A stretch of DNA of 21,115 nt, taken from positions 1-21,115 of the forward strand of contig JAGLRQ010000058.1 in NCBI GenBank assembly GCA_023136205.1, written 5' to 3'. Positions within the stretch are counted from its first letter, which is position 1; each line of letters begins with the position of its first letter. Shown here in pieces: positions 5,499 to 19,578 of the stretch. Source of the stretch: Candidatus Auribacterota bacterium (lineage in GTDB: Bacteria > Auribacterota > UBA6266). A program made the translations under genes and the position numbers. Below the pieces are notes generated by a model. That model saw nothing but the letters and a program-made list of their open reading frames with translations, was not told where the DNA came from and made no database searches.

Positions 5499-6071
5499 AT
5501 GAAAAAGATTTTAGGCTTGTTAATTTTAATGATGGTAGTGTTGTCTTCTTCAAACGTTACCGCGGCATTAAGAAAGACTAAAACATTATATGACTTTTTG
5601 GAAAAGATAGAGACATGTAAGGTTTATCTAAATGAGTTCGCGAATACGTCGGGTGAAAGCGGCGCGGGAGCTGAGATTCTAAACAAAACTATGGCAAAAG
5701 CCCTTGGCGCGAGGATTACACAGAATTTCACAGTAGTTAACAACCCTTCGGAAGCTGATATAATAATTAGCGCTGAGATAATTCAGTTTATGTATACTGA
5801 TGAAGATCCTGCCTATGACGGGATCGTTGGTGTCGGCATGACACCTATTAATCCTGTTGGCCTGGCAGTAGATATGGCTATGAAGCAGTCTTATGTTGAA
5901 AATAAGGTGAGCTATTTGGTAACAGATAAAAATGGCGGCAAGTTATGGAGCCGAAAAATCTATTCAACCGTTACAAAAGGCGATATGCCGCTGGAAGAGG
6001 CGGTTAATATAATAGCAGAGAGGTCAGTTAAAAACTTTTTTATAAAATGTTTAAAGAAACCAAGACGATAA
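5499..6071 (+). CDS. Secreted/periplasmic hypothetical protein
   Basis: Signal peptide MKKILGLLILMMVVLSSSNVTA. SD GGGGGA lies upstream. I recognised no family. Confidence 0.6.
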   Translation: MKKILGLLILMMVVLSSSNVTAALRKTKTLYDFLEKIETCKVYLNEFANTSGESGAGAEILNKTMAKALGARITQNFTVVNNPSEADIIISAEIIQFMYTDEDPAYDGIVGVGMTPINPVGLAVDMAMKQSYVENKVSYLVTDKNGGKLWSRKIYSTVTKGDMPLEEAVNIIAERSVKNFFIKCLKKPRR

Positions 6072-6098
6072 GTGAAATTATAAAGGTTGTAGTTTGTT

Positions 6099-6130
6099 AA
6101 GAGGGGGCTGTTTTTAAACGGCCCCTTCTT
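6099..6130. terminator. Hairpin between convergent genes (probable terminator, better for the + strand)
   Basis: AAGAGGGGGC (6099-6108) pairs with GCCCCTTCTT (6121-6130), including one G:T, around a 12-nt loop. TTCTTAATT follows on the + strand. The 3' arm overlaps the stop of 6129..6314. Confidence 0.45.
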
Positions 6131-6314
6131 AATTCTCCAACTCTTTTTTTCTGTTATTCAGATGTTCAATGTATTTTGATGAACTTCCGCCCATGTCCTG
6201 AACAGCCTTTTTGAGAGCCTCTTCGACTTCAGCAAGCGTCATTTTTGATATTTTTTTCTTTTTTACGGGCATGGTGCTTTCAGGTTGTTTTTCCTGTTTT
6301 GTTTCTTCTGCCAT
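6129..6314 (-). CDS. Small (61 aa) Lys/Glu-rich hypothetical protein
   Basis: A perfect SD AGGAGG lies upstream of the ATG. The ORF has no antisense competitor. Confidence 0.6.
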   Translation of the reverse strand: MAEETKQEKQPESTMPVKKKKISKMTLAEVEEALKKAVQDMGGSSSKYIEHLNNRKKELEN

Positions 6315-6438
6315 AAATCCTCCTGTTTAATATTTAGGGATTTCAGATTTTACGATAACAAAGATTGTTTTCGAAATAATCAATAATAGACTATAAAGCA
6401 AAAGGTAAGAAAAATCATCAATTTTTATTATTTTTAAA

Positions 6439-6467
6439 TTGCGTTAACCTATGTGATGCATTACAAT
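6439..6467 (+). promoter_or_regulatory. Putative sigma70 promoter for the OmpA/LysM gene and possibly the long downstream block
   Basis: TTGCGT (6439-6444), a 17-nt spacer and TACAAT (6462-6467). Confidence 0.35.
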
Positions 6468-6548
6468 GAAAAATCAATCTACAAAAGTGAAATGAAGAAA
6501 CGCGGGGTAATAACAAGTATTATTGTTAAAAAGAAGGAGGAGAAAAAT

Positions 6549-7403
6549 ATGAAAATGACAGCGGTTTTTCTGTCTTGTTTGTTTATATTCGGAGCGCTTT
6601 GCGGTTCCGTCAATAATATGGCTTTTGCTGAGGAGAACGCTGAGAATTTTCAATGGTGGCCTACAGATGCCAAGCCAAGCCCTGTTGAGGATGAAGATAG
6701 AGGGGGATACTGGTGGTGGCCTGACGTGCCGGGGAATATGAGGCCTTATGGAAACAGGGGGTTTGTTTATGTCAGAAAGATAATTCCCGGCAGTATGGGA
6801 GAGCCCGCGATTGTGATAAAAAAGGTACTGAAAAATGTTAAGATATATTTTGATACCGATAAGTCGGATTTGCGGCCTGACGCGGTACCCGTGTTAAGAA
6901 GGGGGTTAGGCCTGTTGCGGAAAAATCCTGAGAGCACAATTTTGATTACCGGCAATGCCGATATAAGAGGAAAAGAAGATTATAATCTTAAGCTGGGTGA
7001 AAAAAGAGGGAAAACTGTAAAAGATTTTATGGTTGAGAACGGTATTCCTGAAGAAAGAATCAGGATTATAAGCCGTGGGAAGCTTGACGCGGTTGCTCCT
7101 GTGGGAGACATAAAGGGAATGCAGAAGGATAGAAATGCCCAGTTTATGGTAGCTGAAATTATTGAGGTCTCCATGTCTGAATGGTCAAAGGCAATGGGGG
7201 AAGAAGTGCAGGAAATTGCTCCTGAAGTTAAGGTTCAGATTACGGAATATACAGTTCAAAAAGGTGATACATTGTGGAAAATTGCTAATAAAGTCTACGG
7301 GGATTCAACAAAGTGGGCTAGAATATATGATGCCAATAGAGATCAGCTTAAGAACCCGAACGATTTAAAAGTTGGCAGAGTTTTACAAATCCCGCTTAAT
7401 TAG
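6549..7403 (+). CDS. OmpA-family peptidoglycan-binding protein with a C-terminal LysM domain
   Basis: Start chosen at MKMTAVFLSCLFIFGALCGSVNNMAFA (signal peptide) because AAGGAGGAG lies at 6533-6541. OmpA_C motif ILITGNADIRGKEDYNLKLGEKRGKTVKDFMVENGI. LysM motif YTVQKGDTLWKIANKVYGD...LKVGRVLQIP. Confidence 0.85.
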   Translation: MKMTAVFLSCLFIFGALCGSVNNMAFAEENAENFQWWPTDAKPSPVEDEDRGGYWWWPDVPGNMRPYGNRGFVYVRKIIPGSMGEPAIVIKKVLKNVKIYFDTDKSDLRPDAVPVLRRGLGLLRKNPESTILITGNADIRGKEDYNLKLGEKRGKTVKDFMVENGIPEERIRIISRGKLDAVAPVGDIKGMQKDRNAQFMVAEIIEVSMSEWSKAMGEEVQEIAPEVKVQITEYTVQKGDTLWKIANKVYGDSTKWARIYDANRDQLKNPNDLKVGRVLQIPLN

Positions 7404-7499
7404 AGAAAAAAACGAATTGCCGCGAATATACACACGGATCAGGACAAAGAATACCTCTCTATTTGCTGCTCGTTGTTTATTTAAGGAGATTTAAAAGCC

Positions 7500-8996
7500 A
7501 TGTCTAATTTTGCTTATTGCAATAGCTGTAGACAAACTGTGCCTGCTGAATATGTTATACGCGGCAGCAATGTGTACCTTGCCAAGAAATGTCCGAAGTG
7601 TGGAATGAATGAGACCTTGATTTCAAGTGATGTGGACGCGTATAAGAAAAAATTTGATTTTATGGGCGATGTGGCTTATGAGAGCTGTGGGTTAAATTGC
7701 CTGGAGTGTGAACATAAGGTTCCGAACATCGCGTTTGTGGAGCTTACGAACAGATGTAATATGAACTGTCCAATCTGTATTACCAATGTTCCGTCAATGG
7801 GATTTGAATTTGAGCCGGACATGGAATATTTTAAGCTTATTTTTGAAGACCTTTCTAAATTAGATCCCAAACCCTCCATTCAGCTCTTTGGGGGAGAACC
7901 TACTGTGAGAGAAGATCTTTTTGATATTATCAGGCTTGCTAAATCTTACGGCCTTTCGGTAAGAGTGGTTACAAACGGCCTGAAGCTTGCCGATAAGAAG
8001 TACTGTGAAAAGCTGATAGAAGAAGGAGTCTCAATTCTTATATCGTTTGACGGGTTTAACAAAAAAATGTATGAAATGTTCAGAGGAATGCCTGAGGCGT
8101 TGGATCTTAAATTGAAAGCTCTTGAAAATCTCGCGCGGAGAAAAAGCGGCAAAGTTATTTTAATGACCGTGGCTTCAAAGGAGCAGGACAGCGAAGATTT
8201 GAAGAAATTGTTTGATTACTGTGTAAAAAATAAAAAGATTACAAGAGGTATTTTTATTATGCCGTTGGCGCATATGTGGTCGCCTGAAAGGCTGGACTAT
8301 AATCCTGAAAGGACTACTCCCGAAGATGTAGAGCATATGGTTGACAACGCGGTGGGAGGCGGCCTTGAATTTGTTCCCCTGGGTTCTCTTGACACAAAGG
8401 TTTTTAATAAGGTCCTTAATTTGAAAGATATGCCTTTTGTCGGTGTGCATCCTAACTGTGAGAGTATAACGGTTCTCGTTTCGGACGGGGAAAGGTTATT
8501 GCCTGTGTCGAAATTCCTGAAAAAAGGTTTATTTGGCCTTATAAACGATTTAAGGAATGTAGGGAAAGATATTTCAGGGCAGAAAGAGGTAGGGTTTTTA
8601 TTCAGGATTAAGGTTTACACGGCCCTTATTAAAATTTTGTTCTGTAATTTTGATTTCGGGGCAGCGGTTGGCCAGAAGGGAGTTAAAGCATTTTTCAAAT
8701 GGATAAAAATAGCCGGCAGGTTAATCTCAGGAACGAAGCTTAAGGATGTAATTAGAGCAGAGACCAGAATGAAAGGGGCTCTTCAGGTGATGGTGCTTCC
8801 GTTTGAGGATTATGACACAGCAGAAGCTGTCCGGCTGAAAATGTGCACTTCCTGTTTTGTTTACCCTGAAGATAGGAATGGAAACGTTAAGTATATTCCT
8901 GTTTGCGCGTGGGAAAAGAACAAAAAGATTGCAATGAAAAAAGTTGCCGAGTTGTTTAATAAGCCGGGTTTTAATAAAGGATTGTCCAGGAAATAA
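7500..8996 (+). CDS. Radical SAM enzyme with an N-terminal Cys4 ribbon and auxiliary Cys clusters (Tes/GDGT-MAS/MJ0619-like architecture), paralog 1
   Basis: N-terminal CNSC...CPKC. Extra CGLNCLEC. Radical SAM CNMNCPIC (CxxxCxxC). GGEPT motif. C-terminal CTSC...C. SD AAGGAGA. The radical SAM call is firm; the Tes-family assignment is from memory of the architecture. Confidence 0.8.
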   Translation: MSNFAYCNSCRQTVPAEYVIRGSNVYLAKKCPKCGMNETLISSDVDAYKKKFDFMGDVAYESCGLNCLECEHKVPNIAFVELTNRCNMNCPICITNVPSMGFEFEPDMEYFKLIFEDLSKLDPKPSIQLFGGEPTVREDLFDIIRLAKSYGLSVRVVTNGLKLADKKYCEKLIEEGVSILISFDGFNKKMYEMFRGMPEALDLKLKALENLARRKSGKVILMTVASKEQDSEDLKKLFDYCVKNKKITRGIFIMPLAHMWSPERLDYNPERTTPEDVEHMVDNAVGGGLEFVPLGSLDTKVFNKVLNLKDMPFVGVHPNCESITVLVSDGERLLPVSKFLKKGLFGLINDLRNVGKDISGQKEVGFLFRIKVYTALIKILFCNFDFGAAVGQKGVKAFFKWIKIAGRLISGTKLKDVIRAETRMKGALQVMVLPFEDYDTAEAVRLKMCTSCFVYPEDRNGNVKYIPVCAWEKNKKIAMKKVAELFNKPGFNKGLSRK

Positions 8997-8997
8997 A

Positions 8998-10518
8998 ATG
9001 TGGCAGAAGAAATTCAAGAGCGTATGTCCTGTTTGCGACCGCCCCGTTGACGGATTATTTTATGAGGAAAACAACCAGGTTTTCCTAAAGAAAACCTGTC
9101 CTGAACACGGAGAAGTCAGGGACCTTGCTTCATCAGATGCTGAACTTTTTTCCGGAAAGATGGACCTTGTCCCCGAAGATTATTCTGAAAAATGCAGTCT
9201 GGAAAAATGTGGTTCGGGGATATTCGCCTGCCAGGACCATTTCGCCAGAAAATCTCCAATAACATTTATAGAGGTTACTACCCGGTGTAACATGAGCTGT
9301 CCCGTATGTTATATAGACGCAGGTACAAAAGGAAGGGATATTCCGCTTGAAGATATAAAAAAAATAATTTCAGAAATCAAAAAGCATGATCCTGGAACCC
9401 ATCTGGTTCTTATCGGGGGAGAACCAACAATTCATAAAGATTTCTTTAAAATACTTGAAGCTGTCCGGGAAGCCGGCCTTATAAAAAGGTGTTATCTTGC
9501 GACTAACGGCATAACACTTTCCAGTGAGGAATTTTGCAAAAAGGTGTACGACGCGGGAATAAGATGGTATTACCTGGCGTTTGACAGTGTGGACAAAGAA
9601 ATGTGTAAGCAGGTAAGGGGAAGTTATAGGTCGTATGAGGCATCCAGGAAGACTATTGAAAATTTAAAGAAATTTAGCCGCGCGAAAATTGTGCTTTCCG
9701 TTACAGTGGTTAAAGGGGTAAACGATAAAGGCCTCCCGGCTGTTCTTGATTTCGCGGTAAGAAACAAAGATGTTGTTAAAAGAATTTCTATTTCCGCGGA
9801 AGTCTTTTGCGGGAGACAGACATCATCAGAAGATTTGCTTAAAAAGAGAATAACATCTGAATGTATAGAGAGTATATTAAGAAGAACTCTTGGTAATGGC
9901 GCGGCGACTATGTCACTGGCGCTTTACGGCACAATCCTTAAACCGCTCAATCTTGCCGGACTTCTTCCGAAGAGAACGGGAATTTACACTATGCCGCATC
10001 CGTTATGCGGAAACATTGGTTTTTTGTTCCGGGCCGATGACGGCTCTTATTTTTCGGTAATAGGCCTCGCGATTAAAAATTCCGCGGCTGATTTATATAA
10101 GTACGGTAAAAAGGTTAAGGATTTTTCGGTTAGGATGGAGAAAAGAAAGAAAATATTGCGCGCAAAACTTTTTGGCAATATCCTCTGGAAGCTTATAGCT
10201 TTTTGTTATTATGTTCCGGTATATTTCGGGATGATTCTTACTTTCATTAAACCTTCATTTGTTTTTAGAGCAGTTATGGCCTTCCCAAAATCGATTTTTA
10301 CCGGGAAAAAGGTAAGTGAATGTCTGCTTGGCAAAGACAGGGTAGAGATACACTATCTGGTCAGCTGTGATAAGTATAACTTTGTCTGGGAGAGGATGCC
10401 TTATTGCGCTACACACCATTATAGAATAGATGCCGGCACAAAAAAAGTCACAAAAATGTGCGGTTGTTATGTTTTTCCCTTCCGAAGTTATGCTGATTCA
10501 TGTAATACAATGGGATAG
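8998..10518 (+). CDS. Radical SAM enzyme, paralog 2 of the same family, with a hydrophobic C-terminal segment
   Basis: Start taken at ATG 8998, one nt after the paralog-1 stop (TAA-A-ATG). N-terminal CPVC...CPEHG. CNMSCPVC. GGEPT. C-terminal C...CGC. Hydrophobic stretch ILWKLIAFCYYVPVYFGMILTFI. The track start at 8944 overlaps the upstream gene and is unlikely. Confidence 0.8.
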   Translation: MWQKKFKSVCPVCDRPVDGLFYEENNQVFLKKTCPEHGEVRDLASSDAELFSGKMDLVPEDYSEKCSLEKCGSGIFACQDHFARKSPITFIEVTTRCNMSCPVCYIDAGTKGRDIPLEDIKKIISEIKKHDPGTHLVLIGGEPTIHKDFFKILEAVREAGLIKRCYLATNGITLSSEEFCKKVYDAGIRWYYLAFDSVDKEMCKQVRGSYRSYEASRKTIENLKKFSRAKIVLSVTVVKGVNDKGLPAVLDFAVRNKDVVKRISISAEVFCGRQTSSEDLLKKRITSECIESILRRTLGNGAATMSLALYGTILKPLNLAGLLPKRTGIYTMPHPLCGNIGFLFRADDGSYFSVIGLAIKNSAADLYKYGKKVKDFSVRMEKRKKILRAKLFGNILWKLIAFCYYVPVYFGMILTFIKPSFVFRAVMAFPKSIFTGKKVSECLLGKDRVEIHYLVSCDKYNFVWERMPYCATHHYRIDAGTKKVTKMCGCYVFPFRSYADSCNTMG

Positions 10519-10605
10519 TTTATTTAATTACGAGTTACGAATTAAGAATCGTAAAGCTCGGGTTGTGAATTATTCGAAATTCCTAAATTTGTGATTGGTT
10601 TAACC

Positions 10606-11520
10606 ATGAATTTTCTAAGAAAGATAAAGAAGAATAAATCCATTACAAGCCTAAGAAGATATATCGTTTATGTTATATCGGTTTTTTTCTTGTTTACGGT
10701 GAAACACCTTCCGTGGAAGCTGGTTGTTTGTCTGGGCCGGTCTTTGGGAAAATTCGCGTTTCACATTGTAAAGTATACCAGAAAAAGAACACTGGATAAC
10801 CTCACGAAAGTTTTTGGGCAGGAGAAGACAGACAGAGAAATATTTCAAATTGCAAAAAATGTATATAAAAATATTGGCATTACCGCTCTTGAATTTCCTA
10901 AAATGTCGTCTATGACAGATAAAGAATTTTTCTCAACGGTTGATTATGAAAAGAAACAAATAGATTTTCTCTGGAGCCTTCTTGATAAGAAGAAAGGGGT
11001 TATTTTCGCGAGTGCTCATATGGGGAACTGGGAAATGCTTGCGGGATTTGGCGCCCGACTTGGATTTAAAATGTCAGTTCTTTACAAACCATCTACGAAT
11101 CCTTATCTCAATAAAATCTGGTTTGGATTAAGAGGCAAAAATCAATTGATAGATATAACAGAGAATCTTCAGGTAGTGACAAAAAGATTAAGGGCTAATG
11201 AAGTAATGTGTATTCTCTTTGATGAAAATGCCAGGAAGAGGGGTGTGAAGCTCAATTTTCTGGGCCGGCCGGCTTCTACTTATAAAGGGCCGGCTTATTT
11301 TTCTCTCAGGACAGGGTGTCCTGTCGTATGCCTGTATTTTATAAGGGGGGAAGATGGTAAACATAAATTTATTATTGAAAGAACTATCTATCCCAAAAGA
11401 TCTAAAGATCTTGAGAAAGATATTATTAAAATTATGAATGAAATGAATGCCAGTTTGGAACTTATGATAAAAAGATATCCGGATCAGTGGAACTGGATAT
11501 ATAAACGGTGGGAAACCTGA
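10606..11520 (+). CDS. LpxL/HtrB-family (lipid A late / lysophospholipid) acyltransferase
   Basis: N-terminal TM segment. HX4E catalytic motif AHMGNWEM. C-terminal YPDQWNWIYKRW is typical of Lip_A_acyltrans. The start is uncertain (GTG 10591 or ATG 10606), with no SD at either. Confidence 0.75.
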   Translation: MNFLRKIKKNKSITSLRRYIVYVISVFFLFTVKHLPWKLVVCLGRSLGKFAFHIVKYTRKRTLDNLTKVFGQEKTDREIFQIAKNVYKNIGITALEFPKMSSMTDKEFFSTVDYEKKQIDFLWSLLDKKKGVIFASAHMGNWEMLAGFGARLGFKMSVLYKPSTNPYLNKIWFGLRGKNQLIDITENLQVVTKRLRANEVMCILFDENARKRGVKLNFLGRPASTYKGPAYFSLRTGCPVVCLYFIRGEDGKHKFIIERTIYPKRSKDLEKDIIKIMNEMNASLELMIKRYPDQWNWIYKRWET

Positions 11521-11612
11521 AGTTAAATACTGTCGGTTTTTATGACTTTATTTTTTTTTGCATTTATGCTATTTTTGTCTGTTATTTTTTAATTAAAAAT
11601 AAGGGCAGGCAG

Positions 11613-12536
11613 ATGAAAAATATAATTGTTACGGGCGGTGCCGGTTTTATAGGTTCAAACCTTGCGATGTATCTTCAGGAAAAGGCGGAAGATACTAATA
11701 TCATTGTTGTCGATGATTTTCGGCAGGCAAGTTTCAAGGCCCTTGAAGGATTTAGGGGGGATATCATTGCTTCCAACGTCGCTGAGAAAGAGTGGCTTTT
11801 AACATTTAAAAACAAAAAAGTTAGCGCGATTTTCCACCTTGCGTCTATTACTGATACAACAGTTTTGGATGAAAGGAAAATGATGTTTGATAATGTCGAA
11901 GGCTTTAGGAATATATTGGAGCTTGCGGTGGAAAAGGGCTCGGATGTTGTATATGCCTCGTCAGCCGCGGTTTATGGAAGCCAGGACTTGCCTATGAAAG
12001 AAGAGGATGGTGGTAAACCCAATAATATATATGGTTTTTCAAAGTGGGTAATGGAAAATTTGGCAAAAACCTATTCCGGTAAAATCAAGGTTGCCGGCCT
12101 TAGGTATTTCAATGTTTTTGGCCCGAACGAGTATTATAAGGGAAATGCTGCCAGTATGATTTACCAGTTAGCTTGTCAGATGATAGAGGGGAAGAGGCCG
12201 AGAATTTTCACAGCGGGAGAACAGAGAAGGGATTTTGTCTATGTTAAAGATGTCGTTTCAGCGACGTTTTCTGCCCTTTTCGCGAAAAGCGGCACGGTGG
12301 TAAATATCGGAAGCGGCAAATCTACTTCGTTTAACGAAGTGATAGATGCTATTAACAAAGCGCTTGGGAGCAGCCTTAAGCCGTCATATTTTGATAACCC
12401 GTATGATTTTTACCAGGACTTCACGGAAGCGGATCTTTCAAAAGCAAAAAAAGAAATAGCCTATGAGCCTGCTTTTACCACTGCCGAGGGGATAAAAGAT
12501 TACATAACAAAATATCTGATAGAGGTTAAAAGGTAG
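11613..12536 (+). CDS. hldD: ADP-L-glycero-D-manno-heptose-6-epimerase-like SDR
   Basis: MKNIIVTGGAGFIGSNL, ASSAAVYG, YGFSK, RYFNVFGPNEYYKGNAASM and RDFVYVKDV track E. coli HldD closely. The track's 35-aa N-terminal extension is T-rich intergenic sequence. Confidence 0.8.
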   Translation: MKNIIVTGGAGFIGSNLAMYLQEKAEDTNIIVVDDFRQASFKALEGFRGDIIASNVAEKEWLLTFKNKKVSAIFHLASITDTTVLDERKMMFDNVEGFRNILELAVEKGSDVVYASSAAVYGSQDLPMKEEDGGKPNNIYGFSKWVMENLAKTYSGKIKVAGLRYFNVFGPNEYYKGNAASMIYQLACQMIEGKRPRIFTAGEQRRDFVYVKDVVSATFSALFAKSGTVVNIGSGKSTSFNEVIDAINKALGSSLKPSYFDNPYDFYQDFTEADLSKAKKEIAYEPAFTTAEGIKDYITKYLIEVKR

Positions 12537-12579
12537 TTATGGGGTGGGAAGTTTTAACAAGTTAAAAAGGGTGATTGCG

Positions 12580-12978
12580 ATGAAAGGTTTGGATAAATAT
12601 GAAAAAGGTATCTTCTGCAGAGAAGGTAATACCGTTTTCGCGGGCAGGCATCTTCTCCTGGAATTCTGGGGTGCTAAAAACATTAACGACCTTCATCTTA
12701 TTGAAAAAGCCTTAACAGATGCCGTAAAAGCATGCGGCGCGACCTTACTCCAAATTAAACTGCACCATTTTACCCCCTACGGCGGTATCTCAGGCGTCGC
12801 CATTGTCATGGAGTCACATCTTACTATCCACAGCTGGCCTGAATTTGATTATGCCGCGATAGATATTTTTCTCTGCGGAGACCGTGATCCTTATAAAGCA
12901 ATCCCGGTGCTTAAAGAAATATTCCAGCCTTCCAAGGTGGAGATTCTTGAATTTAAAAGAGGAATAGTAGAGAAATAA
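12580..12978 (+). CDS. speH: Pyruvoyl-dependent S-adenosylmethionine decarboxylase proenzyme (class 1)
   Basis: Self-cleavage/active-site motif VMESHLTIHSWPE, plus DIFLCG. Start chosen at ATG 12580 (SD AGGGTGA) rather than GTG 12544. Confidence 0.85.
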   Translation: MKGLDKYEKGIFCREGNTVFAGRHLLLEFWGAKNINDLHLIEKALTDAVKACGATLLQIKLHHFTPYGGISGVAIVMESHLTIHSWPEFDYAAIDIFLCGDRDPYKAIPVLKEIFQPSKVEILEFKRGIVEK

Positions 12979-12984
12979 TAGAAA

Positions 12985-13848
12985 ATGCCTAAGTGGATTT
13001 ATGAAACATTATATCCAGATTTAAAGCAGGGCTTTAAGGTAAAAAAAGTTCTGTATAAGTCCAGGACTGAATTTCAGGACATGGAACTTGTGGAAACTTC
13101 CCGCTTTGGAAGGGTGCTTGTTCTGGATGGGGTGGTTCAGACCACGGAAAAAGATGAGTTTATCTATCATGAAATGCTTACACATGTTCCGCTTCTGACG
13201 CACGGAAACCCTAAAAAAATTCTTCTTATAGGGGCTGGAGACGGAGGAATTTTAAGGGAAACGTTAAAGCATCCGGTAGATGAAGTAGTGATGGTTGAGA
13301 TTGACAGGGCAGTAGTGGATTTTAGTAAAAAATATTTAAGGCCAATATGTAAAAATGCCTTTTCGGATAAGCGGCTGAAACTTGTAATTGATGACGGCGC
13401 GAAATTTGTAAAAAAAACAGATGAGAAATTTGATGTTGTAATAATAGATTCTACTGATCCGGTTGGTCCGGCGAAGTGCCTGTTTACCCTGGGGTTTTTT
13501 AAGGGGGTCTCGAGGATACTTCTAACTAAAGGTATTATGGCAAGACAAACAGGTTCTCCCTGGCTCCAATCCGGCGAGTTCCGTAACTCCTGCAGGAAAA
13601 GTGAAACCGCGTTTAAGTATTATGAGCCGTATATGATGGCTACCCCGACATATTATGGAGGATTTTTTAGCCTAATAATTGCTTCTGACGGTATAAATCT
13701 TAGCAGGGGCAAAACGGATTTTAATCGTATCGAAAAAAAGTATAAGAAACTTAAGCTAAATACAAAATATTATAACCCGGAAGTGCACTATGGGGCATTT
13801 TGCCTTCCGGGATATGTTAATGAAATAAGGAGGAAACGGAAGAAATGA
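12985..13848 (+). CDS. speE: Spermidine synthase (aminopropyltransferase)
   Basis: LVLDGVVQTTEKDEFIYHEML, LLIGAGDGGILRE, VEIDRAVV and VIIDSTDPVGPA. Confidence 0.9.
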   Translation: MPKWIYETLYPDLKQGFKVKKVLYKSRTEFQDMELVETSRFGRVLVLDGVVQTTEKDEFIYHEMLTHVPLLTHGNPKKILLIGAGDGGILRETLKHPVDEVVMVEIDRAVVDFSKKYLRPICKNAFSDKRLKLVIDDGAKFVKKTDEKFDVVIIDSTDPVGPAKCLFTLGFFKGVSRILLTKGIMARQTGSPWLQSGEFRNSCRKSETAFKYYEPYMMATPTYYGGFFSLIIASDGINLSRGKTDFNRIEKKYKKLKLNTKYYNPEVHYGAFCLPGYVNEIRRKRKK

Positions 13849-14246
13849 AAGAATTAACCAAAGATAAACGCTGTGAAGAAACAACCGCAAACAGATCCTT
13901 TGGCGTTGAAACAGTAATTGATCTTTATGGGTGTGACTCTCAGATAATACGCTCGGAAGCAAAGCTTAGAGAATATGTTGACAGATTATGCGAGCTGCTG
14001 AAGATGGTGAAATATGGTGATACCTTCACTCCGTATTTTGGTTTGAACAATGATCATACAGCCGGTTATTCCGTACTTCAATTTATTGAAACAAGTTCTA
14101 TTACAGGGCATTTTTCAGAAAATACCAATGCTGCCTACCTTAATATATTTTCATGCGGCGAATATGACGTTGAAAAAGCGGCAGAATTCACAAAAGATTT
14201 TTTTGGCGCGGAAAAAATAGTAAAAAGAGTTATTGACCGGAAGTGA
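13845..14246 (+). CDS. Divergent AdoMetDC-fold (SpeH/SpeD-like) pyruvoyl enzyme paralog, substrate unknown
   Basis: Same-length core as SpeH but altered: VIDLYGCD, FIETSSITGHFSE (versus MESHLTIHSWPE) and NIFSCG. Its ATG overlaps the speE stop (ATGA). Confidence 0.7.
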   Translation: MKELTKDKRCEETTANRSFGVETVIDLYGCDSQIIRSEAKLREYVDRLCELLKMVKYGDTFTPYFGLNNDHTAGYSVLQFIETSSITGHFSENTNAAYLNIFSCGEYDVEKAAEFTKDFFGAEKIVKRVIDRK

Positions 14247-14287
14247 TTGTTCTTTTTTGCGGGTTTAGCAGCCTGTTTAAACTTGAG

Positions 14288-14319
14288 CCCCGTCGGATTT
14301 TGTCCGTCGGGGTTTTTTT
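14288..14319 (+). terminator. Rho-independent terminator closing the 6.5-14.2 kb block
   Basis: CCCCGTCGG (14288-14296) pairs with CCGTCGGGG (14304-14312), with one T:T mismatch and a 7-nt loop. T7 follows at 14313-14319. Confidence 0.8.
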
Positions 14320-14490
14320 ATTCGGGTTAACCCAAAATTTCGCATTATCAAAACGCCTGCAGCCCCCACTTGTTGTTTTTCCCCTCGTGATATATTTTAA
14401 TCAAAGTTGAACCAATATTAACGTAGGCGGATATTCACCTTTGATTGTGATTGTAATTGTAAGTTGATATATGTGTTTTAAAGTTAAATG

Positions 14491-14519
14491 TTGACAGGGG
14501 GTGTTAAACGATGTACAAT
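14491..14519 (+). promoter_or_regulatory. Near-consensus sigma70 promoter for the HTH-KamA-ATP-grasp operon
   Basis: TTGACA (14491-14496), an exact 17-nt spacer and TACAAT (14514-14519). Confidence 0.7.
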
Positions 14520-14592
14520 ACGGTTTCAATAGGGTTTTTAGTGTGTGTTTATGTTTAAAGTGTATGGATTATATTAGAGGTAATTAATTGTT

Positions 14593-14973
14593 ATGGGTGA
14601 GCATAAAGAGAAAGAATTAATGACAGAAAGGGAAGTCAGGGAAATGATCAGGATTTCCCGGACAACATTGTGGAAACTGCGGAAAAACGAAGGTTTTCCC
14701 TTTACCAAAGTTGGGCGCCAGTATAGATATTCCAAAAAAGAGATTCTGGAATGGATGAAGGAAAGAAAGGGAAAGAAGATTGAAGTTAAGGCCGCTAAGC
14801 CGCGCCAAAACGCGTTGGCGGACAAGCCACGCCAAAATGTACCGGCGGGCAAGCCTGATAACATAGATAAAAAGGAGATAAGTAAGGAAATAGCTAAGGG
14901 GCCTTCACAGTTGCAGGGCCAGGAAAAAGGCTCTGCAAAGGAACCCGAAGGAACAACAAATGAAAAAAAATGA
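14593..14973 (+). CDS. Excisionase/AlpA-type (HTH_17, MerR-superfamily) DNA-binding protein with a low-complexity Lys/Pro tail
   Basis: LMTEREVREMIRISRTTLWKLRKNEGFPFTKVGRQYRYSKKEILEWM is a classic excisionase-type wHTH. The tail has three degenerate 9-aa repeats (KPRQNALAD / KPRQNVPAG / KPDNIDKKE). The start could be ATG 14620 instead. Confidence 0.7.
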   Translation: MGEHKEKELMTEREVREMIRISRTTLWKLRKNEGFPFTKVGRQYRYSKKEILEWMKERKGKKIEVKAAKPRQNALADKPRQNVPAGKPDNIDKKEISKEIAKGPSQLQGQEKGSAKEPEGTTNEKK

Positions 14974-16087
14974 GGTGGAAAAAGAAGTAACTGTTGCCTG
15001 TGCCGGTTCGTACAAGAGCAAAAAAGCCAGATGGAATGATTGGAAATGGCAAATTAAAAACAGGATTAATACTTTAGAAGAGATAAGCAAATATGTACAT
15101 TTGACAAAAGAAGAGAAAAAGGGGCTTGTTCTTACCGAACGATTAGCATTCGCGATAACACCATATTTCCTCAGTTTAATTGATCCGTTTGACCCTAATT
15201 GTCCTATAAGAAAGCAATGTATACCTACATCTAATGAAGGTGTTGCTACAGAATTTGATTACAACGATCCGTGTGCCGAGGAGAAAGATAGTCCTGTTCC
15301 CGGGCTTGTTCACAGATACCCCGACAGGGTTTTACTTCTGGTTACGGATGAATGCGCGACTTATTGCCGTCACTGTACAAGAAGAAGAACCACAGGCCAC
15401 GCTAAACATGTAATGACTTCCAAAATGCTTGAGAAAGTAATTAAATATCTTACGGATAATCCCGCAATAAGAGATGTCATAGTTTCTGGAGGAGATCCCT
15501 TAACTCTGTCTGATGAAAAACTTGAAATGATACTATCCAGTTTGAAAAAAGTTCCGACCGTTGAGGTTATAAGGATAGGGACAAGGGTTCCGATATTTCT
15601 ACCTATGAGAATTAGCGAATCTCTGGTTACAATGCTTAAAAAATATAATCCTGTTTGGATGAGCATTCATATAAATCATTCAAAAGAGATTACTGCTGAT
15701 GTTAAGAAAGCACTTGCCAGGCTTGCGGATGCCGGTATCGTTACGGGCAGCCAGACGGTTTTGCTAAAAGGAATAAATGATACGTCTGAAGCGATGAAAA
15801 AGCTTTGCCTGGAGGTTATGAAAAATCGTGTAAGGCCTTATTATATATATCAGTGCGACCCTGCCATAGGAACCTCGCATTTCAGGGCTTCAATAGAGAA
15901 AGGGATTGACATTGTTAGTAAATTAAGGGGTTTTATTAGCGGTTACGCGGTGCCGACTTATGTGATTGATGCCCCCGGCGGTGGAGGTAAAATACCGATT
16001 TCCCCGAAGTATGTAGTAGAAAAACAGGGCAAAAAATGGACTCTTAAAAATTTCCGGGATAAGCATTATGAGTACATTGAAACCTGA
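14960..16087 (+). CDS. kamA: KamA-family radical SAM/PLP aminomutase (lysine 2,3-aminomutase-like)
   Basis: CATYCRHCTRRR (CxxxCxxC), HRYPDRVLLLVT, YIYQCDP and VIDAPGGGGK. These include the PLP lysine and both Asp residues that, as I recall, correspond to the lysine-binding D293/D330 of clostridial LAM. It overlaps the HTH gene by 14 nt. Confidence 0.85.
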   Translation: MKKNEVEKEVTVACAGSYKSKKARWNDWKWQIKNRINTLEEISKYVHLTKEEKKGLVLTERLAFAITPYFLSLIDPFDPNCPIRKQCIPTSNEGVATEFDYNDPCAEEKDSPVPGLVHRYPDRVLLLVTDECATYCRHCTRRRTTGHAKHVMTSKMLEKVIKYLTDNPAIRDVIVSGGDPLTLSDEKLEMILSSLKKVPTVEVIRIGTRVPIFLPMRISESLVTMLKKYNPVWMSIHINHSKEITADVKKALARLADAGIVTGSQTVLLKGINDTSEAMKKLCLEVMKNRVRPYYIYQCDPAIGTSHFRASIEKGIDIVSKLRGFISGYAVPTYVIDAPGGGGKIPISPKYVVEKQGKKWTLKNFRDKHYEYIET

Positions 16088-16139
16088 TTCTTTTCCACTG
16101 CAATTATTTAAAAACTGATTAATCAATTCAATAACTCGT

Positions 16140-17144
16140 ATGAAAATAGGCATAACATATAATCTCAAAGATGATTTTGCTCTTTTAACCGGCGGCGCGG
16201 AAGATGCCCTGGAAGAGTTTGACAGTGAAAAAACAGTTGATGCTATTGTTTTCGCTATGACAAAGCTTGGATTTGATACGGCAAAACTTGGCGGCGGTGA
16301 AAAGGTTATAAGCAGAATAAAAAAAGAAAAACCGTCACTTGTTTTTAATATAGCAGAAGGGATTAACGGGAGATCGAGGGAAGCTCAAATTCCGGCTCTC
16401 CTGGAATTGCTGCAAATTCCGCATACTCATTCGGATCCTCTCACGCTTGCTTTAACTCTTGATAAATCTATGACCAATCAGGTTGTCCGGGCAAATGGAA
16501 TTCGAACACCTGACTTTGTTATAGTTTCCAGGATTTCCGATTTACAGAAAAGCAAATTACCTTCTTTCCCGTTAATTGTAAAACCCGCGTGGGATGGATC
16601 CAGTAAGGGTATAAGGTTTTCTTCAAAGGTTGATACTTTTGAAGCTCTGGAAAAACAGGTTTTGTGGGTTTTGGGCCACTATCCTGATCAGCAGGTTATA
16701 ATTGAAAATTTTATTGTCGGCAAGGAAGTAACTGTTGGTATTGTGGGTAATTATCCTCCAAAAATTCTGGGGATGATGGAAATCGGCCATAAAAATGGCA
16801 ATAAGGAAGATTTTATTTATTCGCTCGAAGTAAAAAGGGATTATAAAAAGCTTGTAGAATATACCTGCCCTCCGAGACTTGCGGAGGAAACTGTAAAAGA
16901 GCTTGAAAAAATGGCTTTGGCAGCATATGAGTGCCTGCAGTGCAAAGATATTGCGAGAATGGATTTCAGAATTGACAGCAGAGGTTTCGCGTATTTTATA
17001 GAGGTAAATCCGCTCCCCGGACTTTCCCCCGGATACAGTGATTTGATTATAATGTCGAAGAAGTATGGGATAAAATACGAAAATATAATAGCCGGAATAC
17101 TTGATAACGCGATAAAAAGGTATAGATTGGGAGAAAAGAATTGA
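16140..17144 (+). CDS. D-Ala-D-Ala-ligase-like ATP-grasp ligase 1
   Basis: MKIGITYNLKDD..., PLIVKPAWDGSSKGI, ARMDFRIDSRGFAYFIEVNPLPGL. No obvious SD. Confidence 0.75.
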   Translation: MKIGITYNLKDDFALLTGGAEDALEEFDSEKTVDAIVFAMTKLGFDTAKLGGGEKVISRIKKEKPSLVFNIAEGINGRSREAQIPALLELLQIPHTHSDPLTLALTLDKSMTNQVVRANGIRTPDFVIVSRISDLQKSKLPSFPLIVKPAWDGSSKGIRFSSKVDTFEALEKQVLWVLGHYPDQQVIIENFIVGKEVTVGIVGNYPPKILGMMEIGHKNGNKEDFIYSLEVKRDYKKLVEYTCPPRLAEETVKELEKMALAAYECLQCKDIARMDFRIDSRGFAYFIEVNPLPGLSPGYSDLIIMSKKYGIKYENIIAGILDNAIKRYRLGEKN

Positions 17145-18223
17145 AAGTCGCGCTTCTATACAATGACCCTGATCTCAAGGCGGACCTGGAACCCGGGATA
17201 ACCGACAGGTATATTCATAACCATATAATAGCTATTGAAGAATCGTTGAAGGAAAAAAATCATGAAATAATCAAGCTGGATGTAAAGAATGATGTTCAAA
17301 GGCTAATTTGCGATATACAGACTGATAAACCGGATGTAGTTGTTAATTTGTGTGAAAGTGTGTTTGGCCGGGCTGAATTTGAAATGAACGTGGTTGCTCT
17401 TCTCGAACTTTTAAAAGTCCCGTATACCGGTGCTTCTCCTATTGCGCTTGGTATTTGCCTGAACAAATATAATCACAGGCTGTTTCTTAAAGACATGAAA
17501 ATAAAATGTCCCGGTGCTGTAACAGTGAAAGGGGTACAGGATTTTAAATCTCTGGGAAAGTTAAAATTTCCTGTTATTGTAAAGCCTCTTTATGAGGACG
17601 GAAGTGCCGGCATATCGGAAAGAAATATCTTTTCGAGTCCACAGGAAGCTATGGAAAATTTTGAAAGGCTTTTGGGTGTTTTTTCAGAAGGCCTTCTTGC
17701 TGAGGAATATATTGACGGCAGGGAATTCAACTGTTTTTTAGTGAAAACAAAAAATGGCGTAAAATCTTTTCCGGTGTCAGAAATAAAATTTAGTTTTCCC
17801 GACAAGAGAAAATATAAGATAATCTCTTATGAAGCCAAGTGGAATCCTGAAAGCATAGAATATAAATCCACAATGCCTGTTTGTCCGGCCGAACTTTCAA
17901 AATCCCTTCTTAAAAAGATTCAGGATGTTTGCGTGAAGATTTTTAATGTTATGGTAAAAAAAGGATACGCGAGGGTTGATTTGAGAATGGATGAAAGAAA
18001 TAATCTTTATATTATTGATGTTAACCCAAATCCTGATATCAGCCCCGATGCGGGTGCGGTGAGACAAATGAAAGCCGGAGGATGGACTCATACAGATTTT
18101 GTTGAACAGATACTTGAAGAAGGTATTGAATATATGAAAAACCCGATTTTCAAACAGGTGTCTGCTGATAGTGTACACACTTCTGAATCCGGCAAGGATC
18201 TAAAAGTTACTGCCGCTGTTTAA
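17141..18223 (+). CDS. D-Ala-D-Ala-ligase-like ATP-grasp ligase 2
   Basis: TTG start overlapping the upstream stop (TTGA), with SD GGGAGAAAAG. MKVALLYNDPD..., PVIVKPLYEDGSAGI, ARVDLRMDERNNLYIIDVNPNPDI. Confidence 0.75.
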   Translation: MKVALLYNDPDLKADLEPGITDRYIHNHIIAIEESLKEKNHEIIKLDVKNDVQRLICDIQTDKPDVVVNLCESVFGRAEFEMNVVALLELLKVPYTGASPIALGICLNKYNHRLFLKDMKIKCPGAVTVKGVQDFKSLGKLKFPVIVKPLYEDGSAGISERNIFSSPQEAMENFERLLGVFSEGLLAEEYIDGREFNCFLVKTKNGVKSFPVSEIKFSFPDKRKYKIISYEAKWNPESIEYKSTMPVCPAELSKSLLKKIQDVCVKIFNVMVKKGYARVDLRMDERNNLYIIDVNPNPDISPDAGAVRQMKAGGWTHTDFVEQILEEGIEYMKNPIFKQVSADSVHTSESGKDLKVTAAV

Positions 18224-18228
18224 AGAGA

Positions 18229-19578
18229 TTAATACTTATACCTGCTTCCACCGATGAATTCCCTGATGAGAGAGTCAGATGGGATACATGAAAAATCCTC
18301 AATGCTTGAAAACGATTCAAGCAGCTGCTTTATCCTGGTTGCGCGCAGGTAGGCATCCTGTTTTGTAACGTTGTTTTTTAGTGTATTAATAAAGCCTTTT
18401 AAATTACGCGAGAGAAGATTTTTCATAACAGGAAGTTCATAGGGCATAGCGCTGTTAATAACATAGTCGGCAGTATTTACAAAAGGGATTATGTGGCGAA
18501 GTTCACTGCTTCTTACATAATGCCAGTGTTCTATGGTCATTTGAGGGTTGTAACTCCTGTATTTTGAGTCCCTGACCATTCTTCTCAGGAGCCTCAGGTC
18601 TGTCCAGCGGATAAATTCGTTGTTTTTGTCTTTCATCTGGAGGAGTGTTTCAATATAAAGGTTAAACTTATTGCTGCTGTCTATTGAACCGGTCATTTTT
18701 TTATGAAGGCCGTGCAGACTGTCTATGAGAATAATTTCTCCCGGGTTTAATTTCAGGGGTGAAGTTTTCTTTTCTCTTCTTCCGGTTTTAAAGTTATATG
18801 ACGGAACCGCAACCTCTTTCCCTGCTATAAGTTGATGGATATGCTTGTTTATCAACTCGAGATCAAGGGCTTCCGGAGTTTCAAAATCATAGTCGCCGTG
18901 TTCATCTTTCGGGTGCAATTTTAAATCATAGAAGTAATTATCGACATTCAGTGTAACAAAGTTTTTTTTGTTTTGTTTAAGTATCTCGCTTGTTTTTATA
19001 GTAGTCGTTGTTTTTCCGGATGATGAAGGCCCTGCTACGATAACGACCTTAAGATTATCTTCCATTTCAAGCATCATTTTTGCCGCTGTTTCAATCTCTT
19101 CCTGATATTTGTTTTCGGAGATTTCAACAAGCTGTGAGAATTTATCCTGTTTTATAATCTCATTTACCTTGCTTATTCTCTCGACGTTGTTATCAATGGC
19201 CCAATTGAGTATGTGATAAATCCGGTGATAAGGAACTTTATCAAACGGAACAACTGTCCGCTTTCCTTTTTCGAGCCGTTCCTTGATCCGGTCATATCTG
19301 TAGAGTATAAAGGCCTTTGCTGTTTTTGAATGGCCGCTTTCAATGAGTACTTCTTCCGTTATGTCTTGTATATCTTCCACGTTAGGAGGGTTGGCAGGGG
19401 AAAAACATTTATTGAGGATGTCTATAACCTTATTAGAAAGTTTTTCCGCGGTTTTTTTATTTCTGCCCCCCGTGGCAATCGCGGCTTTATAAATCGCGTT
19501 GAGTATTCTTTCCTGCGCGAAGGGAACAACAATACCTGAACGTTTGATAACTTTTGTAATTTTATTATCTTTATACAT
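18229..19578 (-). CDS. ATP-cone domain fused to a uridine kinase/phosphoribulokinase-family P-loop kinase
   Basis: N-terminal ATP-cone (KVIKRSGIVVPFAQERILNAIYKA...AKAFILYR). Walker A VAGPSSSGKTTTT. Confidence 0.75.
   Translation of the reverse strand: MYKDNKITKVIKRSGIVVPFAQERILNAIYKAAIATGGRNKKTAEKLSNKVIDILNKCFSPANPPNVEDIQDITEEVLIESGHSKTAKAFILYRYDRIKERLEKGKRTVVPFDKVPYHRIYHILNWAIDNNVERISKVNEIIKQDKFSQLVEISENKYQEEIETAAKMMLEMEDNLKVVIVAGPSSSGKTTTTIKTSEILKQNKKNFVTLNVDNYFYDLKLHPKDEHGDYDFETPEALDLELINKHIHQLIAGKEVAVPSYNFKTGRREKKTSPLKLNPGEIILIDSLHGLHKKMTGSIDSSNKFNLYIETLLQMKDKNNEFIRWTDLRLLRRMVRDSKYRSYNPQMTIEHWHYVRSSELRHIIPFVNTADYVINSAMPYELPVMKNLLSRNLKGFINTLKNNVTKQDAYLRATRIKQLLESFSSIEDFSCIPSDSLIREFIGGSRYKY

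Follow-up and report, generated by a model that had tools for sequence, protein, structure and literature searches.

The closest described relatives of the proteins reported here are the archaeal radical S-adenosylmethionine (SAM) enzymes known as GDGT-MAS or Tes (MJ0619, structures 7TOL and 7TOM; MA_1486; Maeo_0574; NCBIfam model NF045702), which are encoded by one gene. In GDGT-MAS, a C-terminal cluster captures the first substrate radical on a sulfide, and the enzyme binds bacterial phospholipids (PMC9433317). The two Tes homologues of M. acetivorans make different products (PMC8941075). Bacterial homologues have been proposed as makers of membrane-spanning lipids, including branched tetraethers of the glycerol dialkyl glycerol type (brGDGTs) and iso-diabolic acid (Zeng 2022, Chen 2022; PMC8941075, PMC11868695), as the initial annotation of the DNA studied here had noted. 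Examples are the single-gene homologues of Ca. Solibacter usitatus and Ca. Koribacter versatilis, which are 40–42% identical to MA_1486 (PMC8941075) and for which coupling of acyl tails has been proposed. Another bacterial radical SAM enzyme, Mss of Thermotoga maritima and Thermoanaerobacter ethanolicus, was shown in E. coli to couple two fatty-acyl tails; it has six conserved sequence blocks, a Tes-like auxiliary-cluster mechanism has been postulated for it, and BLAST detects no Tes homologue in its hosts. The Solibacter and Koribacter homologues and Mss are compared with our proteins by description only.

Few of the organisms that make bacterial membrane-spanning lipids (brGDGTs and diabolic acids) in anoxic waters and sediments have been identified, and palaeotemperature and pH proxies in wide use are based on these lipids. 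Candidatus Auribacterota (Aureabacteria), a phylum of the Planctomycetes–Verrucomicrobia–Chlamydiae (PVC) group, and Omnitrophota are common in such waters and sediments. Here we analyse a tandem pair of radical SAM genes, ORF-A and ORF-B, in a 21,115-nucleotide contig from an uncultured Auribacterota bacterium (JAGLRQ010000058.1; G+C ~39%). This whole stretch of DNA is called the window. The two proteins are full-length structural relatives of GDGT-MAS/Tes and carry all its cluster-binding residues.

Two full-length relatives of GDGT-MAS

The initial annotation had described two open reading frames (ORFs) of about 500 residues separated by a single nucleotide, and this arrangement is confirmed, with lengths of 498 and 506 residues:

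7500..8996, + strand: ORF-A, 498-residue A-type Tes-superfamily radical SAM enzyme (PF23545 and PF04055).
8998..10518, + strand: ORF-B, 506-residue B-type Tes-superfamily radical SAM enzyme (PF23545 and PF04055).
8994..9000, + strand: A/B junction TAA-A-ATG (A stop, one base, B start), read as AAA TAA A ATG TGG.

A mechanical ORF list places the start of ORF-B at TTG 8944. We take ATG 8998 as the true start because 17 homologous loci align from residue 1 at an equivalent ATG or GTG.

Pfam matches both proteins to the MJ0619-type zinc ribbon (PF23545) and to the Radical_SAM domain (PF04055), and the top NCBIfam model for each is Tes (NF045702), with TrsS second. Among solved structures, GDGT-MAS 7TOL is the closest in sequence to both proteins by a wide margin (A, E 8.5e-46; B, E 7.7e-48), and a family profile stretches the match between A and 7TOL to the C terminus (231.8 bits, residues 26–496 of the chain). 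AlphaFold2 models, which were built on family alignments and without cofactors, have predicted local distance difference test (pLDDT) and predicted template-modelling (pTM) scores of 87.4 and 0.88 for A, and of 85.8 and 0.86 for B. In Foldseek comparisons with 7TOL and 7TOM, A gives template-modelling (TM) scores of 0.76–0.77 over 506 columns and B gives 0.71–0.73 over 524. These are the sole full-length matches; the next (BlsE, MoaA and SkfB) cover the radical SAM core only, at a TM score of ~0.35. Both models thus have the four-domain GDGT-MAS fold, including the C-terminal lipid-pocket domain.

The Tes/GDGT-MAS (MJ0619) family named in the initial annotation is therefore right at the level of superfamily and fold, as judged by Pfam, NCBIfam, 7TOL and Foldseek. 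Neither protein belongs to Tes proper: they are 24–28% identical to GDGT-MAS/Tes and reach 177 and 202 bits on NF045702, where the equivalog cut-off is 450. Six true Tes sequences of the archaeal type score 575–714 bits on the same model, and other A-type or B-type sequences score 177–194.

Peptide-maturase and cofactor families had been named in the initial annotation as the assignment that would overturn this one. The PqqE, MoaA, AhbD, NirJ and anSME models give only 40–77 bits, over the core alone (residues ~75–300) and all far below their cut-offs, and Pfam finds no SPASM/twitch C-terminal domain of the PF13186 type in A or B. We also reject TrsS (NF045646), a family that itself has no known function: it matches only the N-terminal ribbon and core, within the first ~290 residues, at 151.8 bits (A) and 171.4 bits (B) against a cut-off of 490.

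Conservation of the metal-cluster sites

Every cysteine and GGEPT motif listed in the initial annotation is found at its claimed place in the two translations. The sites in ORF-A and ORF-B are as follows, all on the + strand:

7512..7628: ORF-A metal ribbon CNSC...CPKC, C7, C10, C31 and C34 (residues 7–34); PF23545 E 2.9e-10.
7686..7715: ORF-A N-terminal auxiliary cluster motif CGLNCLECEH, C63, C67, C70 and H72 (residues 63–72); aligns with MJ0619 C73, C77, C80 and His83.
7755..7778: ORF-A radical SAM motif CNMNCPIC, C86, C90 and C93 (residues 86–93).
7890–7904: ORF-A GGEPT (residues 131–135).
8457..8906: ORF-A C-terminal domain, with putative [4Fe-4S] triad C320, C449 and C469 (by alignment) and a helical subdomain at residues 343–421 (AlphaFold2 helices).
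9007..9132: ORF-B rubredoxin-like ribbon CPVC...CPEH, C10, C13, C34 and H37 (residues 10–37); PF23545 E 5e-15.
9193..9240: ORF-B N-terminal cluster motif CSLEKCGSGIFACQDH, C66, C71, C78 and H81 (residues 66–81), with altered spacing.
9286..9309: ORF-B radical SAM motif CNMSCPVC, C97, C101 and C104 (residues 97–104).
9415–9429: ORF-B GGEPT (residues 140–144).
10006..10467: ORF-B C-terminal domain, with putative [4Fe-4S] triad C337, C470 and C490, and HHY motif at 473–475.
10174–10248: ORF-B strongly hydrophobic helix of nearly transmembrane character, residues 393–417 (AlphaFold2 helices); best 19-residue Kyte–Doolittle window 1.97, up to 2.66 in Auribacterota orthologues.

We compared these sites with the ligand roles assigned in GDGT-MAS by Lloyd et al. 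(PMC9433317) in an alignment of MJ0619 and the sequences of 28 A-type, 20 B-type and 15 true Tes proteins. MJ0619 residues 6–476 were rebuilt for this alignment from Protein Data Bank alignments, and of the 15 sequences taken as true Tes, six were confirmed by score. The radical SAM cysteines are invariant across all three groups, and the GGE motif and the arginine equivalent to Arg210 of MJ0619 are invariant in both the A and B families. That the same cysteines are invariant across the 28 A-type and 20 B-type homologues shows that the motif pattern did not arise by chance.

The columns of MJ0619 C338, C455 and C470 are also invariant. They correspond to C320, C449 (the first residue of the CTSC at 449–452) and C469 in ORF-A, to C337, C470 and C490 (the last residue of the CGC at 488–490) in ORF-B, and to cysteine in 15 of 15 Tes sequences. 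From this conservation we infer that C338, C455 and C470 are the C-terminal cluster ligands, where the published description gives the ligation as '3 Cys + Met439' (PMC9433317).

At the N terminus, the two proteins depart from the archaeal arrangement in different ways. The ribbon of ORF-A has four cysteines, invariant in 28 of 28 A-type sequences, whereas the fourth position in MJ0619 is histidine; its auxiliary-cluster residues C63, C67, C70 and H72 align exactly with the MJ0619 ligands and are likewise invariant (28/28). The ribbon of ORF-B has three cysteines and a histidine as in MJ0619 (His in 16 of 20 B-type sequences and Asp in 4), and it is the N-cluster motif that is re-spaced. C71, C78 and H81 align with MJ0619 N-cluster ligands, the column of MJ0619 C77 is Ile or Val, and C66 sits upstream of them. 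All four ORF-B residues are invariant in 20 of 20 B-type sequences, and C66 is the likely third cysteine ligand of this cluster.

A separate observation concerns Tes itself. The three N-terminal auxiliary-cluster cysteines are kept in only 9 of the 15 sampled true Tes sequences, versus all A-type and B-type sequences. On this sampling, the N-cluster seems dispensable in part of Tes proper and fixed in the bacterial sister clades.

We considered whether B might be a degenerate, non-catalytic partner of A. This idea was rejected: in 20 of 20 B-type sequences, every cluster ligand is invariant, and so are GGE, Arg207 and Arg273.

A hydrophobic, helical C-terminal domain is a further feature shared with GDGT-MAS/Tes, and in both A and B its hydrophobicity is equal to or above that of true Tes. 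The initial annotation had placed a hydrophobic C-terminal segment only in the second protein. B is indeed the more hydrophobic (1.97 in its best 19-residue Kyte–Doolittle window, residues 399–417), but A also reaches 1.65 (residues 364–382), and the difference is one of degree.

Two deep sister clades

A and B are 28% identical over their first 340 residues (BLAST, E 1e-36). Over the last ~150 residues BLAST finds nothing alignable between them, although both structural models place the same helical domain there. The description of the two proteins as related but strongly diverged therefore holds. The term 'tandem paralogs', in the sense of recent duplicates, does not: A is as far from B as each is from true Tes, and a neighbour-joining sketch of A-type, B-type and Tes-like sequences shows three deep clades, one for each type. 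Recent tandem duplication was accordingly rejected. This separate-clade position would also set A and B apart, by description, from the Solibacter and Koribacter homologues.

The two families differ in size. The A family is large, with more than 1000 homologues at E <= 1e-10, the best 120 of them all scoring at least 431 bits; the sources named for them are, among others, Omnitrophota, Planctomycetota, Verrucomicrobiota and Candidatus Acidiferrales. The B family is very small. It comprises 38 clusters at 90% identity, and an exhaustive HMMER scan of 1.84 billion representatives found ~7 clusters (50% identity) above 260 bits, followed by a drop to 171.

Pairing of A-type and B-type genes in two phyla

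The order A then B is kept in loci of two kinds. Auribacterota-type examples are L001–L004, L008, L018 and L019, and Omnitrophota-type examples are L005, L012, L015, L017 and L020–L024 (L numbers are our locus designations). In 17 of 17 A–B loci, the B start lies at +1, −8, −11 or −20 nucleotides relative to the A stop, a spacing that, at the level of sequence, is a signature of translational coupling. The pairing also appears obligate from both sides. All A-type genes at least 51% identical to ORF-A have a B-type gene next downstream, and all B-type genes with readable upstream DNA are preceded by another superfamily gene; in the most divergent B case, L016, the upstream fragment has a B-like C terminus. 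More distant A-type genes occur singly or as arrays with two to four A-type members (L010, L014, L025, L026, L037, L050 and L084). The initial annotation had suggested a heteromeric or two-step activity, a suggestion that gains support from the stop/start coupling conserved in 17 of 17 loci. An obligate, coupled pair of bacterial genes is also a clear difference from Tes, as it is from the single genes of Solibacter and Koribacter.

Literature searches on tandem Tes-like pairs and on Auribacterota lipids gave nothing relevant, and we found no published description of two separate sister families outside Tes proper, of obligate A–B coupling in Auribacterota and Omnitrophota, of the rarity of the B clade, or of the lipoprotein and desulfurase genes that recur beside members of the larger A family, as described below. 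The broadest published search for Tes homologues (e < 1e-50, identity >20%) included the PVC group and may already have caught some A/B-type proteins. Counts of 'Tes homologues' based on BLAST thresholds may lump functionally distinct clades.

Genes flanking the pair

The + strand carries all genes from 5499 to 18223, and envelope genes flank the pair on either side. Those named in the initial annotation (an OmpA/LysM protein, a lipid A-type acyltransferase and HldD) are present as claimed, by Pfam and NCBIfam:

5499..6071, + strand: exported 190-residue protein with a signal peptide and no lipobox, which opens the co-directional run; syntenic in L001, L002 and L008.
6453..7403, + strand: exported OmpA-like protein with LysM peptidoglycan-binding domain, 96 nucleotides upstream of ORF-A (PF00691 and PF01476).
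10591..11520, + strand: LpxL-family acyltransferase, 309 residues, 72 nucleotides after ORF-B (PF03279, E 1.2e-46, 159.7 bits).
11508..12536, + strand: HldD (ADP-glyceromanno-heptose 6-epimerase), with a 13-nucleotide overlap with the LpxL-like gene (TIGR02197, 298.8 bits, cut-off 274.6).

The OmpA/LysM gene is syntenic in L001, L002 and L008, and its Pal-like matches fall below cut-off. Adjacency of HldD is limited to the window and L001. No terminator-like hairpin is found on the + strand in 7404–7499 or in the 72-nucleotide gap before the LpxL-like gene, and co-transcription of the pair with its flanking genes is therefore plausible but unproven. The promoter and terminator scan gave no more sites than shuffled sequences did, and is usable only for this absence of hairpins in the two gaps. 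No riboswitch or other RNA element is present in the window at Rfam gathering thresholds.

The LpxL-like protein resembles LpxL/LpxXL in that PF03279 matches it along its full length, its N terminus carries a membrane segment and it has the catalytic HX4E motif (SAHMGNWE); it differs from them in falling below every NCBIfam LpxL equivalog cut-off. The order A–B–LpxL is found in six Auribacterota-type loci (the window, L001–L004 and L008), down to 56–62% identity. These loci share a longer syntenic block that runs from a membrane-transport gene via methyltransferase and NUDIX genes onward, and common descent would therefore suffice to account for the order. At all Omnitrophota-type A–B pairs and at L018, an LpxL neighbour is absent. 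The conservation of the tandem pair together with LpxL in relatives, which the initial annotation had proposed to survey, thus holds for the six Auribacterota-type loci and for none of the Omnitrophota-type pairs.

The LpxL-like clade is itself lineage-wide, with 52 clusters at 44–100% identity. Its most distant orthologue (L098, 44% identical) lies downstream of an AsmA-like gene without a radical SAM neighbour, and the nearest outgroup (L099, from Elusimicrobia) lies within a KdsA-KdsC-LpxL-LptC-LptA-LptB series. From such contexts, the LpxL-like gene is probably a housekeeping late lipid A acyltransferase, and we rejected the idea that it is a dedicated partner of the pair, as the contexts of L098 and L099 indicate a housekeeping lipopolysaccharide (LPS) gene. 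One further adjacency was found in L075:1435-3972 (65% GC), where an LpxL-family gene (PF03279, E 2e-41) starts 7 nucleotides after an A-type stop. The A-type gene there is 35% identical to ORF-A, the LpxL is 28% identical to that of the window, and a DDE transposase lies upstream. By a rough estimate, the probability of such an adjacency by chance in ~70 loci is near 0.1, which is suggestive and not decisive.

Neighbourhoods of the wider A family

To survey the wider A family (33–45% identity to ORF-A), stop-to-stop ORFs within 7 kb of radical SAM genes were clustered for ~95 loci. The radical SAM copies were defined by tblastn, the ORFs are crude and the metagenome loci were not dereplicated; clusters c1, c2, c4, c5, c12 and c13 are likely alternative-frame or antisense artefacts and were ignored. 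The recurrent neighbours are:

22 loci, flanking the A-type gene: ~170-residue unannotated lipoprotein that has a lipobox, carries a GWTTLDIxGDD-like motif and matches no Pfam family.
14 loci, directly downstream: SufS/CsdA-like cysteine desulfurase (PF00266, E 3e-84; SufS is the top NCBIfam model, with a score below its cut-off).
8 loci, directly upstream of A-type genes that stand singly: thioredoxin-fold lipoprotein (PF00085, E 7e-13; signal peptide, GGC lipobox).
6 loci, between tandem A-type copies: second lipoprotein family.
5 loci: Rrf2 regulator.

A three-gene unit of lipoprotein, A-type enzyme and SufS-like desulfurase is found in L053, L058, L063–L066, L068 and L082 (also L010 and L039), for example in L064:134-3938. 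The thioredoxin-fold lipoprotein accompanies L072, L077 (9002-9865), L081, L085, L087, L093, L096 and L097. Two arrays hold four A-type genes each: in L014:1-12509 four copies follow ThiF, JAB, PALP, sulfite reductase/TusA and PP-loop ATPase genes, and in L050:4425-13273 four paralogues stand in a row. The second lipoprotein family is interspersed in both arrays, and the Rrf2 regulator occurs in L050. In L011, one A-type copy lies amid NifU, ThiI, NifS-like and ThiF genes. None of the lipoprotein, desulfurase, thioredoxin-fold or Rrf2 neighbours occurs at any A–B pair, the window included. The desulfurase context may reflect dedicated repair of a C-terminal cluster that forms substrate–sulfur adducts, or sulfur-dependent chemistry. 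The larger A family may thus reveal either a repair system for a sulfur-capturing cluster or a different, sulfur-inserting reaction.

A stand-alone 241-residue ORF in L010 (11022-11747, − strand) matches only the A-type C-terminal domain and is 52% identical to the L014 copies. This ORF is a fragment of a gene or else encodes a C-terminal domain that exists on its own.

Proposed function and alternatives

We tentatively favour, at somewhat less than an even chance of being right, a model in which A and B form a two-enzyme system for carbon–carbon coupling of lipid tails, with the work divided between them. Each enzyme would bind a hydrocarbon tail in its helical, hydrophobic C-terminal domain, and a 5′-deoxyadenosyl radical would take hydrogen from an unactivated terminal or sub-terminal carbon of that tail. 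The substrate radical would be parked on the C-terminal cluster until a second SAM-dependent abstraction joins two tails through a C(sp3)–C(sp3) bond. A and B might act in a hetero-complex that holds one tail each, or perform two successive or differently positioned couplings, and the more hydrophobic B may provide membrane attachment. The substrate would most likely be an ordinary membrane lipid of the cytoplasmic face, and the product a membrane-spanning or macrocyclic lipid of Auribacterota and Omnitrophota. The junction predicts that the two proteins are made together from one translationally coupled message. Because their C-terminal domains cannot be aligned and B is never found without an upstream partner, A and B appear to be non-redundant on one pathway. 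If the pair does make coupled lipids, these phyla become new candidate source organisms, and the coupling chemistry would prove divisible between two specialized subunits.

Several observations weigh against this model. Both proteins score far below the NF045702 cut-off of 450 bits (A 177.2, B 201.7), and hallmark residues of Tes have changed. The Met439 column is Met in 15 of 15 Tes sequences, Leu in A (27/28; Leu433 in ORF-A) and Leu or Ile in B (20/20). The Tyr459 column is Tyr in 15 of 15 Tes sequences and Phe in A (27/28; Phe453 in ORF-A); in B it is His474, and the next residue, Tyr475, is nearly invariant. Among 1000 archaeal homologues, Met439 and Tyr459 are reported to be conserved without exception. 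The SAM-lid residues Gln268 and Ser271, which contact 5′-deoxyadenosine (Gln in 15 of 15 Tes sequences, with Ser in 9 and Ala in 6 at the second position), are replaced in A and B, and Arg275 (Arg in 13 of 15 Tes sequences) is kept in B and lost in A. The M439A variant of GDGT-MAS is still active (PMC9433317), as is a Tyr-to-Phe variant, and the residue changes therefore argue against membership of Tes rather than against Tes-like chemistry. Moreover, GDGT-MAS appears to act alone, with a native mass equal to one chain (PMC9433317), and a hetero-complex is thus without precedent. No bacterial member of the superfamily has been experimentally tested so far (PMC11868695), and we found none in the literature. 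Finally, the lipoprotein, SufS-like, thioredoxin-fold and Rrf2 neighbours of the wider A family have no obvious role in lipid synthesis, and genes for fatty-acid, glycerolipid or ether-lipid synthesis are not recurrent neighbours in any group among the ~95 loci.

The same neighbours (in 22, 14, 8 and 5 loci for lipoprotein, SufS-like, thioredoxin-fold and Rrf2 genes) invite an explanation in which the fold is kept and the chemistry or substrate differs: the C-terminal cluster would serve as a sulfur donor or need constant repair, and the enzymes would form C–S bonds or modify an exported lipoprotein or its anchor. The sulfur-metabolism genes beside the L014 array and the L011 copy fit this view, as do the changes at Met439, Tyr459 and the SAM lid and the exported proteins encoded just upstream of the pair in the window; GDGT-MAS itself forms an adduct between substrate and cluster sulfur and releases a sulfur-containing lipid when SAM is limiting (PMC9433317). 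We nevertheless consider this explanation doubtful for A and B. The neighbours in question occur at no A–B pair, and the desulfurase could just as well serve to mend a cluster that C–C coupling has damaged. The lipoproteins come from three unrelated families, which fits an envelope context better than a specific protein substrate, and radical SAM enzymes are cytoplasmic, whereas lipoprotein lipidation takes place on the other side, at the outer face of the inner membrane. A different objection to our model is that A and B may be independent isozymes, each performing the whole coupling on different chains or under different conditions, with adjacency reflecting co-regulation only. That GDGT-MAS acts alone (PMC9433317), that separate enzymes are expressed by archaea that carry two Tes homologues (PMC8941075) and that arrays of two to four A-type copies are common in the loci listed above would all be expected from isozymes. 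The absence of any B without an upstream partner would not, and neither would the stop/start coupling in 17 of 17 loci across two phyla, which is typical of proteins needed in fixed proportion; we regard this alternative as unlikely.

The pair could also act on lipid A or on a precursor of LPS, on the cytoplasmic side of the inner membrane, and link acyl chains installed by LpxL, to yield a macrocyclic or bridged lipid A. Such a substrate had been raised in the initial annotation on the basis of the flanking genes. Assembly of lipid A takes place at the cytoplasmic face, which would be accessible to a radical SAM enzyme. The A–B–LpxL order kept in the window and its five relatives, the 72-nucleotide gap without a terminator-like site, the overlap of LpxL with HldD in the window and the independent radical SAM–LpxL adjacency in L075 are consistent with this idea, but most of the context argues the other way. 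The block from the membrane-transport gene to LpxL is syntenic, and the linkage may be inherited order only; Omnitrophota-type A–B pairs and L018 lack LpxL; and the LpxL clade is lineage-wide, with an outgroup in a Kds/Lpt operon and an L098 orthologue that has no radical SAM neighbour. A coupled lipid A that spans the leaflets presumably could not be flipped or exported, we found no report of such a lipid A in the literature, and a search for iso-diabolic acid in lipid A returned nothing relevant. What stands of the lipid A idea is thus chiefly the L075 adjacency, and the order restricted to syntenic Auribacterota loci and the housekeeping-like LpxL leave it weak. We judge this substrate improbable. 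Its most specific form, in which an A–B hetero-complex holding one tail per subunit cross-links an LpxL-acylated lipid A precursor into a macrocyclic or bridged product, we judge very improbable; if true, it would be the first function for a bacterial Tes-superfamily enzyme and would define a new kind of outer-membrane lipid.

Other genes in the window

Downstream of HldD, positions 12544–14246 carry a polyamine cluster with the SAM decarboxylase SpeH and the spermidine synthase SpeE. The cluster includes a second, divergent SpeH-like pyruvoyl enzyme (32.7 bits, cut-off 75.65), which may have another substrate. Positions 14593–18223 encode a helix–turn–helix/excisionase-like protein of 126 residues, a KamA-type 2,3-aminomutase (TIGR03820, 476 bits, cut-off 525) and two D-Ala-D-Ala-ligase-like ATP-grasp enzymes, whose genes overlap by 4 nucleotides and which both fall far below the Ddl cut-offs. 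This region may specify a pathway to a peptide containing β-amino acids or to a compatible solute. On the − strand, 18229–19578 encodes a 449-residue fusion of an ATP-cone with a domain of the uridine-kinase/phosphoribulokinase (PRK) family. Two tandem PRK-family genes related to this fusion lie near the LpxL orthologue in L098.

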